DNA of 64,000 nucleotides from Myxococcales bacterium (GTDB lineage: Bacteria > Myxococcota_A > Polyangia > Polyangiales > Houyiibacteriaceae), in assembly GCA_024640845.1 (NCBI GenBank), contig JAHEEE010000006.1, positions 27,357 through 91,356 of the forward strand, written 5' to 3'. Below the pieces are notes generated by a model. The model was not told where the DNA came from, did no database searches, and saw only the letters and a program-made list of their open reading frames with translations. The translations under genes were made by a program, and so were the position numbers. Below are positions 22,042 to 33,721 of this stretch, in pieces; the first letter of the stretch is position 1; each line of letters begins with the position of its first letter.

Positions 22042-22140
22042 CGCTGCGGAGTATACCGGTTTTGCCCGAGAAAGCCCGGGGTGACTCCCCGATTGGCGGT
22101 AATTCCAGCCCATCGCGTCCTCTCTGTTAGCATCGTAGCC

Positions 22141-23568
22141 GTGTCTGATTTCGGCCTCGACGCCTATGTCCTCGGTGGCGACGATTCGGTGGGACACCCG
22201 CATCCGCTGGAGATTGCACGCGATCTGATCGCGGCGGGAAAACCTCGCTCTGCTCTCGAGGTCTTGAGCCTGCACCACGGCCAGCTCGCGGACGATCCCA
22301 AGTACCTGTTGATCTGTTCCGAGGCTTGGTGGGCCACCGGCGACGCGCTGCGTGCGCAACAGGCATTGGTGGGCGCGGCCCGCCTCGTTCCCGACGACCC
22401 CGCACCCTTGCAGCTGCTCGGGGAGCTCCTCCGGGAGTGTGGAGAACGAGAGAAAGCCGAGCGCGTCTTGGCGAAGGCCCGAGCACTCGAGTTGTCAGGC
22501 GCAGTGGGCGAAGATCTACGCGAGTCCGAGCTGCCGGCGGTCGAAGACGATCTCATTGCCTTCGCGGAGCGTCGAGAGCGAAGCAAGCAGGCAGGCTTGA
22601 CGCCCAGACAGATCCTGGGCGCCTTGAGCGGGCTCGCGCTGACCGCAGGCGTCGTGGCGGGCATCGTCGTCCTGACCCAGCCGAGCGAAGAGACAGAGAC
22701 AGCGCCAAGGCCAGAGACAGCGTCAGCCCCAGAGGCAGCGCGAGCGTCAGCGCCAGCCCGAGAGGCAGCGTCAGTGTCAGTGTCAGCGTCAGTGCCAGCC
22801 CCAGCGCCAGCCCCGGCGCCAGAGACAGCGCCGGCGGCAGCGCCCGTGCCCGTGTCAGCGTCAGCGCCCGTATCAGCGCCCGTGTCAGCGCCAGAGACAG
22901 CGCCGGCGGCAGAGCTGGCGCCCGTGCCAGCGCCAGCCTCAGCGTCAGGCCCAGCGTCCGCACCGACGAAAGCGTCTCCGCCTCCGCGGCGGAAGCCCGC
23001 TGCGAAGGTCGCTCCCAAACCCAAGCGTTCGACAGCGGCGCCAGCGCCGGAGGCCGTCCCCGAACCTACGGCTGCCGTCGTGCAGTCCGAGCTTTCGTCT
23101 ATGGAGGCCCCGGGGCTCACGCGGCGCGCGGACCAGCTCTTCGCGCAGGGTCACCCCGCCGTCGCCGCGAGCTACTACCGTCGCGCGCTCGAGCTTGATC
23201 CCGACTACGCGCCGGCGCTGGTCGGGATCGGCCGCGGCATCCTTCGTGCCGAGAAATACGAGGATGCCATGGAGAACGCGACCCGCGCGCTCCAACACGC
23301 GCGAGGCGTCGATGCGAGGCCCGGACTCGAAGCCGAGGCGATCTACCAGATCGCCCGAGTGCACCTCTATCGGGGCGAGCTCGATGCGGCGCGGCGACTT
23401 TTCCGGCAGTCGATCTCGCTCCCCGGCACACCTCCTGCCGCTTGGTTCTATCTGGGCGAGGCGCTTTGGACCGATAATTCCCCTGCGGCTCGCGAAGCCT
23501 ACGAGCGCTACCTCGAGCTCGTTCCCAACGGGCATTTGGCCGATCGGGCTCGTCGGGCGATTCAGTAG
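22141..23568 (+). CDS. Bitopic TPR protein with Ala/Pro/Ser low-complexity linker
   Basis: N-terminal TPR-like helices, one TM segment, an AP/AS repeat linker and C-terminal TPRs (YRRALELDPDYAPA; AYERYLELVP). Start is probably GTG 22141. Confidence 0.8.
   Translation: MSDFGLDAYVLGGDDSVGHPHPLEIARDLIAAGKPRSALEVLSLHHGQLADDPKYLLICSEAWWATGDALRAQQALVGAARLVPDDPAPLQLLGELLRECGEREKAERVLAKARALELSGAVGEDLRESELPAVEDDLIAFAERRERSKQAGLTPRQILGALSGLALTAGVVAGIVVLTQPSEETETAPRPETASAPEAARASAPAREAASVSVSASVPAPAPAPAPETAPAAAPVPVSASAPVSAPVSAPETAPAAELAPVPAPASASGPASAPTKASPPPRRKPAAKVAPKPKRSTAAPAPEAVPEPTAAVVQSELSSMEAPGLTRRADQLFAQGHPAVAASYYRRALELDPDYAPALVGIGRGILRAEKYEDAMENATRALQHARGVDARPGLEAEAIYQIARVHLYRGELDAARRLFRQSISLPGTPPAAWFYLGEALWTDNSPAAREAYERYLELVPNGHLADRARRAIQ
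22693..22965 (+). repeat. Degenerate hexamer tandem-repeat tract inside the TPR gene
   Basis: Runs of cagcgt/cagtgt/cagcgc/cagccc; 22-nt direct repeat ccagagacagcgccggcggcag at 22819 and 22891. Confidence 0.8.
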
Positions 23569-24437: not shown

Positions 24438-26150
<1,713 letters not shown>

Positions 26151-26260
26151 GTTTAGTCACACCCACCCACCCACCCCCACCACGTAATCCTCCCTCCGCG
26201 GCACTCGCTTCGCTCTGCCTTGGCGGCGCTTCGCGCCGGGCTTCGCCGTTCCGGCTCGCG
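26151..26260 (+). repeat. Partial tandem copy (module A) of the structured intergenic element
   Basis: cccacccccacc.cgtaatcctccctccgcg...cttggcggcgc..cgcgccgggcttcgccgttccggctcgcg recurs at about 26305-26415 and 33266-33375. Confidence 0.85.
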
Positions 26261-26705
26261 GGTTGCTGTGGTGAGGGGGTGGGTTGGGCTGCTTAGGTGG
26301 GTTGGTTTAATAACATCCACCCGCCCACCCCCACCTCGTAATCCTCCCTCCGCGCGCTTCGCTTTGCTCGCGCTTGGCGGCGCATGCGCGCCGGGCTTCG
26401 CCGTTCCGGCTCGCGCTGCCGCGCATGTCTTGGGGCGAGGTCTCTTGCGTGCACACGCTGCCGCAGCCCTTTGGATGCGCAGAGTCGTTCATAAGGGGCT
26501 CGGAAAAACGCGATAGGGGTTGGAGCGGGCGTGCGAAGTGACAATCGGCAGGACAGCAACCACCCCCGATTGGCGCGCCGCACCGAGGGGCGGCGTGCGT
26601 GGCCTGACCTCCCCAGTTCTACGGGCCACCTTTGCAGGCCGCCCCGTCCCGTGAAACCCCTATCGCGTTTTTCCGAGCCCCGTGTGCACCTAGCCGCCCG
26701 GGCGT
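26261..26705 (+). repeat. Structured intergenic repeat element, copy 1 (candidate non-autonomous mobile element or ncRNA)
   Basis: Aligns to 33222-33665 (37 differences over 26391-26705, no gaps). Perfect 27-bp inverted repeat at 26495-26521/26655-26681 with nested hairpins. Confidence 0.9.
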
Positions 26706-26810
26706 GGTGTGCTGGCGTTTGCGTTTACCTAGGAGAATTGGTCGGGATGCGCGGCGCAGCGATGGGGCGGGAGGCCGGTCATCTACCGCTTTGTCGCGAC
26801 GGCCGAGCGG

Positions 26811-26864
26811 GGCACCCCAGCGCGAGCACGTGCGTCGCGACCGAGTCTCCGAGCCCTAGGGGCC
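26811..26864. repeat. Short palindromic REP-like repeat, copy 2
   Basis: 37/46 identical to 4295-4340; overlaps the stop codon of the convergent gene 26856-27290. Confidence 0.6.
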
Positions 26865-27290
26865 GGTCATTCGGAGCCACATGGCTGCGAGCATCGCTGC
26901 GACCATGGCGGCTAGGGCGAGCGTGCCGACGATGTCTTCCATGCGCTTGCGGCGCTTACGGTCGTCCATCCAGCCCGGCGTGGTCGGCTCGCTCTGAGAG
27001 GTTTCCGACGGCAGCGGCGCTGGTGGTGGGATCGGCCGCTGCAGGAGCGGATCGGGTAGGGCTGGGGCGCGGTTGACCACTTCGCTCCACTGCTCTTGGC
27101 GCGCCTCAGGGCTTCGGACAACGTGACTGATGTCGGCTGGGGGCCGCTCGCTATCGCGCGCGACACGCACCAGCTTCGTCGTGTTCTCGCCGCCCTTCTT
27201 TCGGACGTAGCTTGGGCGCCTGCGGGGCTTTCCAGGGAGCTCGAGGTCTTCGTCGGGGCGTGGCACGGGGTTTCCTTCCACCGCCCCCAC
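26856..27290 (-). CDS. Hypothetical protein with C-terminal TM anchor
   Basis: Pro-rich body and a hydrophobic tail after a basic patch; no better ORF here; TATACT upstream. Confidence 0.6.
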   Translation of the reverse strand: MGAVEGNPVPRPDEDLELPGKPRRRPSYVRKKGGENTTKLVRVARDSERPPADISHVVRSPEARQEQWSEVVNRAPALPDPLLQRPIPPPAPLPSETSQSEPTTPGWMDDRKRRKRMEDIVGTLALAAMVAAMLAAMWLRMTGP

Positions 27291-30518: not shown

Positions 30519-33167
30519 ATGCCGCGTATACTCAAGCGAATCGAATCGGTCGTGCCTCGCAGGGCGTCGGGGTACGGGGGGAAAGCGCGAGGCTTGGCGG
30601 CACTGGCGCGCGCCGGCTTCCCGGTGCCGGCTGCGTACGCGATGCCCGGGTGGGTTGGCGATTCGTTCTACTCGACCGTGCTCGACATCGCGGACCGACC
30701 GAGGGCTTTGTTGCGAGAACCTCATGTTTCCGACGTTCGTCTGCAAGCGATCGCCGAGCGGGTGCGGGACGCCACGCTCCCGCAGGACGTCGTCCGCGCC
30801 GTCAAAGACGCGTTGTTGGCCATGCGCGACGAGGGGGCGACGAGCTTCGCCGTGCGCTCGTCAGGACTGCACGAAGACCAAGAAGGCGCTTCGGCCGCGG
30901 GGATGCATTCCACGGCGCTCAATCTCATGCGCGAGGACGAGGTCCTCGACGCGATCAAGGTCTGCTGGTCGAGCCTGTTTCGCCCGCGCGTCATCTCCTA
31001 TCTGCGTATGCTCGATGAAGCGCTACCCGTGTCGGTCGGTATCGTGATTCAGGCGATGGTTCCGGCCGAGGTGTCCGGTGTCTTGTTCACGGTCAACCCG
31101 CTGACCGGTGATGGAGGCGAGGTCGTCATCAACGCCGCGTACGGCCTTGGCTCACAAGTGGTCGAGGGGCGTGTGACGCCGGACACCTATCGAATCGACA
31201 AAGCAACGGGGCAACTGCGCGATCGAATGATTGGCGACAAGGCGCAGCAAACGCTCCTCGAGCGCTCCGGCGGCGTCCGCGAGGTCGAAGTTCCGCCGGC
31301 CGACCGCGCGCGACCGGCGCTTGCGGACCCGCAGCTTCTCCACCTAAACGATCTAGCGAATCGCATCGAGAACCACTTCGGAGACGCCCGCGACGTCGAA
31401 TGGGCGATCGCCGGGCAGCAGGTGTACGTGCTTCAGGCGCGCCCCATCGTCGTTCCCCGTGTCCGGAGCCGCCGAGGCGCGCGGCACGACCGCCTGTGGG
31501 ACCGCCGAAAGATCGTGTGGAGCAACGCCAACGTCGGCGAGGCGCTGCCGGGAGTCGCGACGCCATTCACGTGGTCGGTTCTCAGTCAGTTTAGCGACCT
31601 GGGATTTCGACGTGCGTTTGGTGCCATGGGGTGCACCGTGCCCCGCGACGCCGAGCTCGTCGGCGACTTTCGTGGGCGCATCTACATCAACCTGACCGAG
31701 TTCAGCGCGATCATGTCGCAGATCCCCTGGATCCATCCTTCGACGCTGGTGCGGCTCGGCGGTGGTCAATACGCGCCCGAGCTCGATCAGGTCGTCGCAG
31801 AGCGCAATTCCACCGGCTTCGTTCTTCGCCTCCCGCAGACGGTGTCCCGCTACGTTCGGGAGAACTTCCGCTTGGGCGCGCGCATCGAGGAGTTCGAGAG
31901 CTACTTCGCCGAGGAGCGCATGCGGATCGAAGCGATCGACCCGCGCATTCTCGAGCCGAGTGGGCTCGACCGCATGCTCGGCGACGTCGAGCACCTCCTC
32001 GATGAGACCGGATCGATCATGTTGACCGCGTACGCCAACCTCTTGAGCGCAGTCCTTGCATTGTTGACGATCCTTCGCATTTTCGCCCGCGACCAAGGCC
32101 CTGGGTTCTACCGTGATCTGCTGTCTGGCCTCCAAGACGTATCGAGCGCGCGTCCCGGTTTTGCGCTTCGTCAGATCGCGCAGCTCGCCTGCGATGAGCC
32201 AGAGGTCGCGAAGCGGATTCGAAGCACACCTCTCCCGGAGCTTCGGGTGGATGATCTTCCCCCCGGACGAACGCGCGAGGCGCTCCGGCGGTTCATCGAG
32301 GACTATGGTCACCGGGGGGTTCGCGAAGCAGAGATCGCCGCGCCGAGGTGGGCCGAAGATCCAACCCTCATGTTCGCCGCTTTGCGCTCACACCTCGACC
32401 GCTCGGCCGACATACCCGCGCGCGAACGAGGCCTCAGAGCAGCGCGCGAGGATGCCGAGCGGAAGCTGCAGCAGGGCGTCCCGCTACCCCTGCGTCCCGT
32501 CGTCCACAAGCTCCTCGAAGTCGCTCGCCGCTTCACGCGGATGCGCGAGCACCTTCGAGGCCACGTCATCGAGGTGCTGGGGCTGTTTCGGCGTGTTGCG
32601 CTCGAAGCGTCGCGGCGAATCGAGTCGCGTGAGCCGGAAGCCGGGCCCGATGCGGCCTTCTTTCTGACGCTAACCGAGGTGCGGCGCGTGCTCTATGACG
32701 ACAACGATCGCGTTGCGCTGCGCGTCCAGCGCCGAAGGCTCGAGTATGAGCGAAACCGAAAGCTACCGGACCCGCCGACGACGTTTGTCGGCTTCCCACC
32801 AGATGATGAGAGCTTCGCTGCGGCGGCGAAGAGCCTCAAGGGCCTCGCGGCGAGCAGCGGCATCGCGGAAGGCACAGTGCGAATTCTGAACGATCCGTCT
32901 CAGGCCGCCGACTTTGCGCCAGGGGAGGTGCTGGTTGTTGCCGCCGCGGACACGGGCTGGGCTCCGCTGTTTCTCGCCGCTTCAGCGGTCGTCACCGAGC
33001 TCGGTGGTCCGCTCTCCCACGCGGCGATCATCCTCCGTGAGTATGGCGTCCCCGCCGTCGTCAACGTAAGCAACGCCACCCGCTCCCTTCGCAATGGAGA
33101 CATCGTGAGAGTGGATGGGGATGCGGGAACAGTCGAAGTGTTGGGGGCCGTAGCCACTGGGTCTTGA
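30519..33167 (+). CDS. PEP-synthase/PPDK-family phosphotransferase (ATP-grasp, central domain, C-terminal phospho-His swivel)
   Basis: GGKA..L, AVRSS..ED...S.AG, GLG..VVEG...PD, DVEWA, LQARPI; C-terminal GGPLSHAAI.LREYG.PAV. Confidence 0.88.
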   Translation: MPRILKRIESVVPRRASGYGGKARGLAALARAGFPVPAAYAMPGWVGDSFYSTVLDIADRPRALLREPHVSDVRLQAIAERVRDATLPQDVVRAVKDALLAMRDEGATSFAVRSSGLHEDQEGASAAGMHSTALNLMREDEVLDAIKVCWSSLFRPRVISYLRMLDEALPVSVGIVIQAMVPAEVSGVLFTVNPLTGDGGEVVINAAYGLGSQVVEGRVTPDTYRIDKATGQLRDRMIGDKAQQTLLERSGGVREVEVPPADRARPALADPQLLHLNDLANRIENHFGDARDVEWAIAGQQVYVLQARPIVVPRVRSRRGARHDRLWDRRKIVWSNANVGEALPGVATPFTWSVLSQFSDLGFRRAFGAMGCTVPRDAELVGDFRGRIYINLTEFSAIMSQIPWIHPSTLVRLGGGQYAPELDQVVAERNSTGFVLRLPQTVSRYVRENFRLGARIEEFESYFAEERMRIEAIDPRILEPSGLDRMLGDVEHLLDETGSIMLTAYANLLSAVLALLTILRIFARDQGPGFYRDLLSGLQDVSSARPGFALRQIAQLACDEPEVAKRIRSTPLPELRVDDLPPGRTREALRRFIEDYGHRGVREAEIAAPRWAEDPTLMFAALRSHLDRSADIPARERGLRAAREDAERKLQQGVPLPLRPVVHKLLEVARRFTRMREHLRGHVIEVLGLFRRVALEASRRIESREPEAGPDAAFFLTLTEVRRVLYDDNDRVALRVQRRRLEYERNRKLPDPPTTFVGFPPDDESFAAAAKSLKGLAASSGIAEGTVRILNDPSQAADFAPGEVLVVAAADTGWAPLFLAASAVVTELGGPLSHAAIILREYGVPAVVNVSNATRSLRNGDIVRVDGDAGTVEVLGAVATGS

Positions 33168-33221: not shown

Positions 33222-33665
33222 GGTTGCTGGCTGGAGGGTGGTCGGTGGGTGGGTTAGCTGGTTTGGTTTGGTAACATCCCCCCACCCACCCCCACCGCGT
33301 AGTCCTCCCTCCGCGGCCGTCGCTTCGCTCGGCCTTGGCGGCGCTACGCGCCGGGCTTCGCCCTTCGGGCTCGCGCTGCCGCGCATGTGATGGGGCAGGG
33401 TCTCTTGCGAGCACATTCTGTGGCAGCCCTTTTGATGCAAAGAGTCGTTCATAAGGGGCTCGGAAAAACGCGATGGGGGTTGGAGCGGGCGTGCGAAGTG
33501 ACAATCGGGACAACAGCAACCAGCGCCGATTGGCGCGCCGCACCGAGGCGAGGCTTGCGTGGCCTCACCCTCCCAGTTCTTCCGGCCACCTATGCAAGCC
33601 GAGCCGTCCCGTGAAACCCCCATCGCGTTTTTCCGAGACCCGTGTGTACCTCGACGCCCGGGCGT
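33222..33665 (+). repeat. Structured intergenic repeat element, copy 2
   Basis: Aligns to 26261-26705. Inverted repeat 33455-33481/33615-33641 (26/27 paired) carries a compensatory change relative to copy 1. Confidence 0.9.
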
Positions 33666-33721
33666 CCTGCCTTCCAGGGTCCCCAGTGCCGGCGTCGGTG
33701 CCAGTGCTAGTGTCCGTGCCA

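Follow-up and report, generated by a model that had tools for sequence, protein, structure and literature searches.

The window, the whole 64,000-nt stretch of DNA that was analysed, comes from a Myxococcales bacterium whose genome assembly comprises 4.14 Mb in 145 contigs with a G+C content of 63%. It contains two copies of a non-coding repeat that a first-pass annotation had placed at 26261-26705 (copy A) and 33222-33665 (copy B), in the same orientation and each behind a plus-strand stop codon. Alignment confirmed this arrangement. Upstream of copy A lies a plus-strand MM_CoA_mutase (methylmalonyl-CoA mutase) gene with its stop at 26150, while copy B is preceded by a plus-strand PPDK_N/PEP-utilizer gene that stops at 33167 and is followed by a pseudouridine synthase gene. 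A repeat search within the window matched 26387-26686 to 33347-33646 over 300 nt at 89% identity.

Read along the plus strand, the DNA around copy A resolves into a row of modules. Directly after the mutase stop is an extra copy of a 110-nt module, M1 (26151-26260), which consists of a C-rich run and then three small hairpins; BLAST of M1 against the window matched 26163-26259 at 88%. There follows a G-rich arm (26261-26304), which the minimum-free-energy fold pairs with the C-rich beginning of the M1 copy behind it; blastn-short located it at one genomic place, so the arm is specific to copy A. The second M1 (26305-26414) belongs to a module found at 59 or more genomic places. Next is the variable 5' lead-in of M2 (26415-26494), which contains the 5' half of an outer stem proposed in the first-pass annotation; M2 has a discrete start at approximately 26435, and the lead-in occurs before the core at 13 places. 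The core itself (26495-26681), the conserved unit of the family, is a hairpin with a three-way junction, made up of a basal stem of about 27 bp and two inner arms. A short G+C palindrome (26682-26718) forms the 3' terminal module, past which between-copy similarity stops sharply in an alignment of 26 copies with their flanks. Module 3 (26719-26855; 8 genomic places) then reaches the stop of a convergent minus-strand ORF (26856-27290). Elsewhere in the window, a 37-nt fragment at 4295-4331 matches the last part of module 3 (26815-26851) with 86% identity. Copy B, also on the plus strand, comprises a G-rich arm upstream of M1 (33222-33265, by alignment with copy A), M1 (33266-33375, by repeat search and BLAST), a variable M2 lead-in with 85% identity to that of copy A (33376-33454), the core hairpin (33455-33641, by alignment, fold and BLAST) and the 3' terminal palindrome (33642-33670, by the 26-copy alignment).

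The ~445-bp stretch is a composite of independent repeat modules, and is neither one element nor one gene. In a metagenome contig, position 26434 is joined straight to 26719, so that 284 nt are absent and M1 and module 3 stand together without M2. This junction identifies the 284-nt block of lead-in, core and terminal palindrome as a discrete insert. Relatives carry M1 alone or the core alone, and three copies have cores at least 98.6% identical with clearly different lead-ins. The 5' side of the copies is a variable patchwork, and the 3' boundary is sharp. The proposed outer stem was rejected, as in 26 copies its two sides pair in only 338 of 453 cells, with variation confined to the 5' side and no compensatory change. 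The suggestion of a single structured RNA of ~445 nt was likewise not borne out, given that the modules occur separately, the outer stem does not covary and orientation relative to the transcription of neighbouring genes is random.

Imperfect hexamer arrays (approximately CAGYGN) flank copy B on both sides (including 33671-33721), and the same arrays border a different mosaic at the orthologous site in a relative (G011). The array 3' of copy B is in frame with the pseudouridine synthase gene and encodes a Val/Pro/Ser-rich extension with repeated GTG codons. A 12/18-nt periodic repeat at 22665-22979 lies inside a 495-aa ORF (22081-23568) that appears by eye to encode a TPR-type protein; this repeat corresponds to a Pro/Ala/Ser/Val-rich linker and has the hexamer pattern seen beside the elements. 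The arrays were rejected as part of the element, as only 6 of 71 genomic arrays lie within 150 nt of a module, all six of them on the element's strand.

The fold of the core was analysed in an alignment of 56 copies, of which this genome supplied 30 and 15 further genomes in the genus the remaining 26. RNAalifold returned a long basal stem and two arms with a total of 56 pairs, of which 20 showed both-sided (compensatory) change. Base pairing was retained in 98.5% of 3121 cells, compared to 90.4% in shuffles, and none of 500 shuffles matched the core in any of five measures. Slid controls, with partners shifted by 1-3 columns, left 36-47% of cells paired. As the copies are related, cell counts overstate the number of events and the compensatory pair count is the safer figure. 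The 27-bp stem and both inner arms, which the first-pass annotation had recognised from the two window copies, are supported well beyond chance. The individual substitutions it listed also hold on re-reading: A26515:T26661 becomes G33475:C33621, G26589:C26643 becomes C33549:G33603 with two neighbouring G:C pairs turned into tandem G.A/A.G, the G26595/G26637 mismatch becomes T:A, and G26403:C26407 becomes C:G.

Mismatches in the core are strongly asymmetric, with 207 G:U and 6 A:C combinations, the G:U pairs being spread over at least 8 columns; read on the minus strand, 92.1% of cells would pair. This asymmetry indicates that the plus strand is the folded strand, in agreement with the first-pass annotation. 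The predicted fold of the whole stretch has the same preference, with -256.3 kcal/mol (z -7.5) for the plus strand and -231.8 kcal/mol (z -4.8) for the minus strand. In 25 distant copies we counted 1275 Watson-Crick, 41 G:U, 3 A:C and 24 other combinations, and 44 of the 56 pairs showed both-sided change in this alignment, which is biased towards the model because it was fitted to it. The junction of these distant copies keeps short sequence blocks, and the letters of the basal stem are replaced yet remain paired. The core fold is conserved with compensatory changes, is specific to the plus strand, and is under selection. For M1, an alignment of 60 copies gave 21 predicted pairs, 5 of them compensatory, and 61 G:U compared to 2 A:C combinations. 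Readings of the junction as a sigma-54 promoter or a k-turn were dropped on inspection by eye. Rfam returned no match at the gathering threshold across the 64-kb window, consistent with the earlier failure to recognise a known RNA family. In E-value mode (26100-26800) there were only chance hairpin matches of at most 25 bits against cut-offs of 37 to 268, and the best sub-threshold match scored 25 bits against a cut-off of 268 bits.

The core (~187 nt) occupies 37-39 places in this genome, where its 39 copies comprise 28 full copies and 11 cut by contig ends. The first-pass annotation would have been refuted had there been no copies beyond these two and no significant covariation, which is clearly not the case. 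Within the genus, BLAST (E≤1e-10) detected the core in 45 of 55 genomes. A covariance model derived from the 56-copy alignment found it in 33 of 151 sampled Polyangiales genomes, belonging to six families (f1, 17/23; f3, 10/15; f14, 2/4; f2, f18 and f19, 1/1 each), and the matches listed from outside the genus span the whole model. With the same model no core was found in families f7 (0/10), f10 (0/9), f16 (0/23), f17 (0/23) and f22 (0/22). A pattern scan of species genomes gave at least 108 stretches. The 80 titles among the matches listed were all MAGs and, with the exception of two named 'uncultured bacterium', were assigned to Myxococcales, Polyangiales, Polyangiaceae, Myxococcota or delta-proteobacteria. 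A search for phage carriage found no match to the junction pattern in viral contigs. In other lineages the core is paired with other small repeats; in this genome it is usually preceded by M1 and followed by the short palindromic end. In the articles searched, supplements apart, there was no report of such repeats in Myxococcota or Polyangiales, and the main text of a 2026 preprint on non-coding sequence space has no mention of words beginning with Myxococc or Polyangi.

Some genomes show distinctive arrangements of the core. In G084, a member of f14, cores often form head-to-head inverted pairs 98-383 nt apart (loci L198, L199 and L201-L204), and between the paired cores lie tandem copies of a 21-nt perfect palindrome with A and T runs that resembles a two-way terminator. 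In G062, three cores are arranged in tandem with a period of 379 nt (G062:C4:416106-417076). Each of them scores 177.2 bits, and this identity of scores suggests a recent tandem amplification.

Gene context was assessed with a crude, GC3-based ORF filter, and the resulting counts are approximate. Within this genome, 38 of 39 cores lie between called genes. The remaining core lies inside an ORF that we take to be a spurious call of the filter. Of 81 copies with both neighbours called (25 from this genome, 56 from relatives), 42 are flanked by convergent and 9 by divergent genes, and in tandem regions the core is sense in 13 cases and antisense in 17. In 46 of 64 cases M1 comes after a co-oriented gene, with the stop no more than 100 nt away in 27 of these, and in tandem regions it is sense in 13 cases and antisense in 12. 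The core and M1 avoid promoter regions, and their orientation shows no preference with respect to transcription. Orientation relative to replication direction gave no signal (Fisher p 0.73 for the core and 1.0 for M1) in a test without power, since the GC skew averages 0.011, which is too weak, and is not tied to gene strand. The two ends of the core behave differently with respect to stop codons. The stop of the downstream convergent gene lies within 10 nt of the end of the model match, which extends 11 columns beyond the stem, in 24 of 47 cases, whereas an upstream co-oriented stop lies within 10 nt of the match in 1 of 39. A stop codon is often found within ~20 nt of the 3' end of the core, and it is with this end that the core docks.

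Comparison of orthologous sites revealed differences in presence, composition and orientation. Nothing is inserted at the copy B site of G023, G005, G002 and G008, whose two flanking genes abut or overlap; in G011 the site is occupied by a different mosaic with the same terminal palindrome at its end. In four relatives the PEP-utilizer and pseudouridine synthase genes overlap, with a GTG start within the last codons before the TGA, and in this genome the repeat mosaic has moved the two genes ~520 nt apart. The copy A site is empty in G002 and contains M1 only in G023, M1 and module 3 in G011, and M1 and the core in G005. At a third site (L187), G023 and G005 carry the core on one strand and G062 carries one on the opposite strand, while G061 has a 3' remnant and G063 is empty. 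In G023 and G005 the core lies 7 nt past a stop codon that is co-located in relatives lacking the core. A target-site duplication was not seen at the three compared sites, where the flanking DNA has diverged too far, or has been filled anew, for the joints to be placed. The comparisons defined neither an intermediate of excision or insertion nor a motif for terminal cleavage. Next to the copies in G002 is a direct repeat of 12 nt that seems to belong to the repeated unit. The arms of the basal stem constitute inverted repeats of ~27 bp, and conserved sequence extends past them on both sides.

Judged from these comparative patterns only, the empty, differently filled and oppositely oriented sites indicate that the modules are mobile. 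Of the G005 matches to copy A, the best (82%) is the copy at the orthologous site, which could reflect long vertical retention rather than repeated insertion. The mosaic identity between copies could likewise have come from gene conversion rather than transposition. We favor, with a probability of roughly 60%, the interpretation that the window contains, in two copies, a mosaic of interspersed repeats that are non-coding and form hairpins, and whose core represents a non-autonomous mobile family present in several families of the Polyangiales (uncultured Myxococcota). The first-pass annotation had offered a non-autonomous element moved in trans as one of its two suggestions, and the multicopy intergenic modules, the variable orthologous sites and the absence of coding capacity or a partner gene beside the copies fit it. 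The data are in keeping with REP/BIME/MITE-like selfish repeats with a mobiliser that is not among the enzymes searched.

An alternative is that the core serves the host as a functional structured RNA, acting in cis at gene ends as a terminator, an insulator between convergent genes or a 3'-end stabiliser, or in trans, with its copies kept because they are useful. One sediment RNA library yielded contigs over 26511-26705 and 33471-33665, covering both cores. Their depth is low and like that of neighboring genes, however, they carry no strand or end information, and they cannot be told from DNA carry-over; among the RNA runs one had a small share (0.08) and three next to none, and parts that no contig covers carry no information. 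A promoter scan of 26000-27000 found no promoter-like site for copy A, a terminator scan of the same interval found one terminator-like site, which is no more than in shuffles, and copy A has no T-run past the stem. The sequence just 5' of the core differs between relatives in the alignment, by eye. Extensive covariation, the spread from genus to order, a junction sequence conserved across families, G:U pairs and tandem G.A are all compatible with a host RNA. The position right behind stops and the enrichment between convergent genes are also compatible, but the gene whose stop abuts the 3' end of the core runs antisense to the folded strand. Similarly, M1 is C-rich on the same strand and mostly follows a co-oriented gene (46/64), but the even orientation in tandem regions (13 versus 17 for the core, 13 versus 12 for M1) means that read-through would yield the unfavored strand about half of the time. 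Considering also that close relatives have no insert, or other contents, at the corresponding sites, we regard a host RNA as rather unlikely.

The search for a mobilising partner covered four Pfam families, PF01797, PF07282, PF01548 and PF00078. The first-pass annotation had noted that no transposase is in the window, and in the genome-wide search none of these four families matched there. None of the copies found encloses an ORF, and neither coding capacity nor a partner gene was found beside them. RAYTs are typically single-copy, and the genome encodes one Y1_Tnp protein, an IS200-like/RAYT-like protein of 216 aa (G000:C81:14130-14777; L168 1462-2112), whose gene sits among housekeeping genes, between an MglA-like GTPase gene (named by eye from the translation) and a putative 3' part of leuS (also by eye). 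If the hairpins were the ssDNA substrates of this single enzyme, the system would be of the REP/REPIN type. A strand-specific fold is what would be expected of an ssDNA substrate, and the copies are extragenic and follow genes, as REPs do (PMC3733652). However, the 3 kb on each side of the Y1_Tnp gene contain no module, and the distribution of Y1 does not follow that of the core. Of the 55 genomes in the genus, 40 have a Y1 homologue. Six core-less genomes have one (E 3e-48 or better; G003, G008, G013, G021, G054 and G068), whereas 12 core-bearing genomes have none at E≤1e-5, including the core-rich G061 (99% complete), G004, G006 and G048. Across the order sample, PF01797 was found in 23 of 33 core-bearing genomes compared to 78 of 118 others (77/117 when G164, which is unpublished, is left out). 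Its size of 187 nt and its three-way junction also set the core apart from a 20-40-bp palindrome or doublet. On gene context and co-occurrence this Y1/RAYT protein was rejected as the partner, and we consider a REPIN-type origin of the repeats improbable.

The remaining three families gave a similar picture. TnpB (PF07282) was absent from this genome and from five near-complete core-rich genomes, IS110 (PF01548) was absent from this genome and present in two of those five, and reverse transcriptase (PF00078) was absent from this genome. All three were rejected as partners, being absent or unlinked to the core. At locus L240 (G005:C13:1-5000), an IS110-type ORF starts ~200 nt from the 5' side of a core, and the 3' end of that core overlaps the stop of the upstream gene. 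That the core is the RNA partner or end of a known insertion sequence (a TnpB/IscB omega-RNA, an IS110 bridge RNA or a retroelement RNA) is hardly credible: its sharp 3' end followed by unrelated flank resembles a scaffold and guide, and one IS110-type gene lies beside this G005 core, but there is no Rfam match at the gathering threshold, TnpB was found in none of six genomes and reverse transcriptase not in this one, and only one of four IS110 copies is near a core, which points away from the gene.

The mobile-element-linked RNAs represented in Rfam include the IscB/TnpB omega-RNAs (HEARO, IS605-orfB) and the IS110 bridge RNAs. The core resembles these in its large conserved fold, its many copies and its sharp end beside unrelated flank, but differs in matching no Rfam family, in the absence of TnpB from all six genomes and in the presence of IS110, unlinked, in only two of the six. 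Elements that home to terminators or hairpins behind genes include class C group II introns and REP-targeting members of the IS110 family. With these the core shares the polar docking of one end close behind stop codons, but it has no intron or recombinase gene, and reverse transcriptase is absent from its own genome.

The repeats resemble REP/BIME and REPIN-RAYT systems (PMC3116915, PMC3337134 and PMC3733652) in that both are extragenic, multicopy and hairpin-forming. As in REP/BIME, most of the repeats are located behind coding regions, where the neighbouring ORFs are unidirectional or convergent, they are often joined with other repeats in mosaic intergenic regions, and a single-stranded substrate is suspected. 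REPs are extragenic and lie after genes, and the CGTC REPs constitute a family without a dedicated transposase (PMC3733652). Whereas a REP is a 20-40-bp palindrome or doublet, the core measures ~187 nt and has a three-way junction whose two inner arms are separate, and it lacks an unpaired GTAG/CGTC tag with the stem and loop sizes reported there. The terminal palindrome was tried as a CGTC-tagged REP and rejected, as it does not have the AT-first stem of 8-9 bp described there. Unlike in RAYT systems, the Y1 gene has no flanking repeats and no association with the core across genomes. The repeats also resemble MITEs and the BOX, RUP, SPRITE, ERIC, Correia and QMITE2 repeats (PMC10969869) in being small, non-coding and multicopy with a stable stem-loop, in their intergenic or 3' untranslated location, and in that the elements bunch and insert into one another. 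In contrast to MITEs as characterised there, the core family is G+C-rich rather than AT-rich, and no target-site duplication was found. Further differences are that no parent insertion sequence with matching ends was found among the searched families, that the inner arms covary as well as the terminal inverted repeats, and that mismatches are strand-asymmetric. Recognition of terminal inverted repeats in double-stranded form would not yield the observed ratio of 207 G:U to 6 A:C.

Returning to the interpretation of the repeats as a non-autonomous mobile family, the combination of a strand-specific fold, random orientation with respect to transcription and no conserved promoter suggests that selection acts on the element's own single-stranded form. 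We infer this to be the most likely target of selection. The single-stranded form would be either an ssDNA intermediate or a transcript of the element, and a trans-acting enzyme would recognise it at the conserved junction; the likeliest stage under selection is a transposition intermediate recognised in this way. New copies would be gained at the 3' ends of genes, in DNA that contains no gene, and in many of them the 3' end of the core would come to lie within ~20 nt of the stop. Secondary effects on the host, for example on transcript ends at convergent genes, are possible. More specifically, the core may be the cis substrate of an undescribed mobilisation system that reads the one-strand three-way junction as ssDNA or RNA and docks the 3' end a few bases behind stops. 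Its enzyme would be host-encoded or unrecognised, and unrelated to RAYT, TnpB, IS110 or reverse transcriptase, and the system would have persisted across several Polyangiales families. In a bolder form, the copies would be a dispersed family of working RNAs marking convergent gene ends. We put this forward tentatively, as a proposal that is possible though some way from probable.

These repeats have practical consequences for work on Polyangiales. They break short-read assemblies, as illustrated by the 11 of 39 copies located at contig ends, and they can be mistaken for regulatory RNAs of the adjoining gene. Interspersed hairpin repeats are common, and outside the REP-RAYT pair few families have a known agent that copies them. 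The present family offers a handle on this problem in its large fold, sequence-conserved junction, one-strand selection, polar docking and spread over multiple families. As the known hairpin-using enzymes fail the association tests, the core is a good bait for a new single-strand enzyme or a gene-end RNA element.
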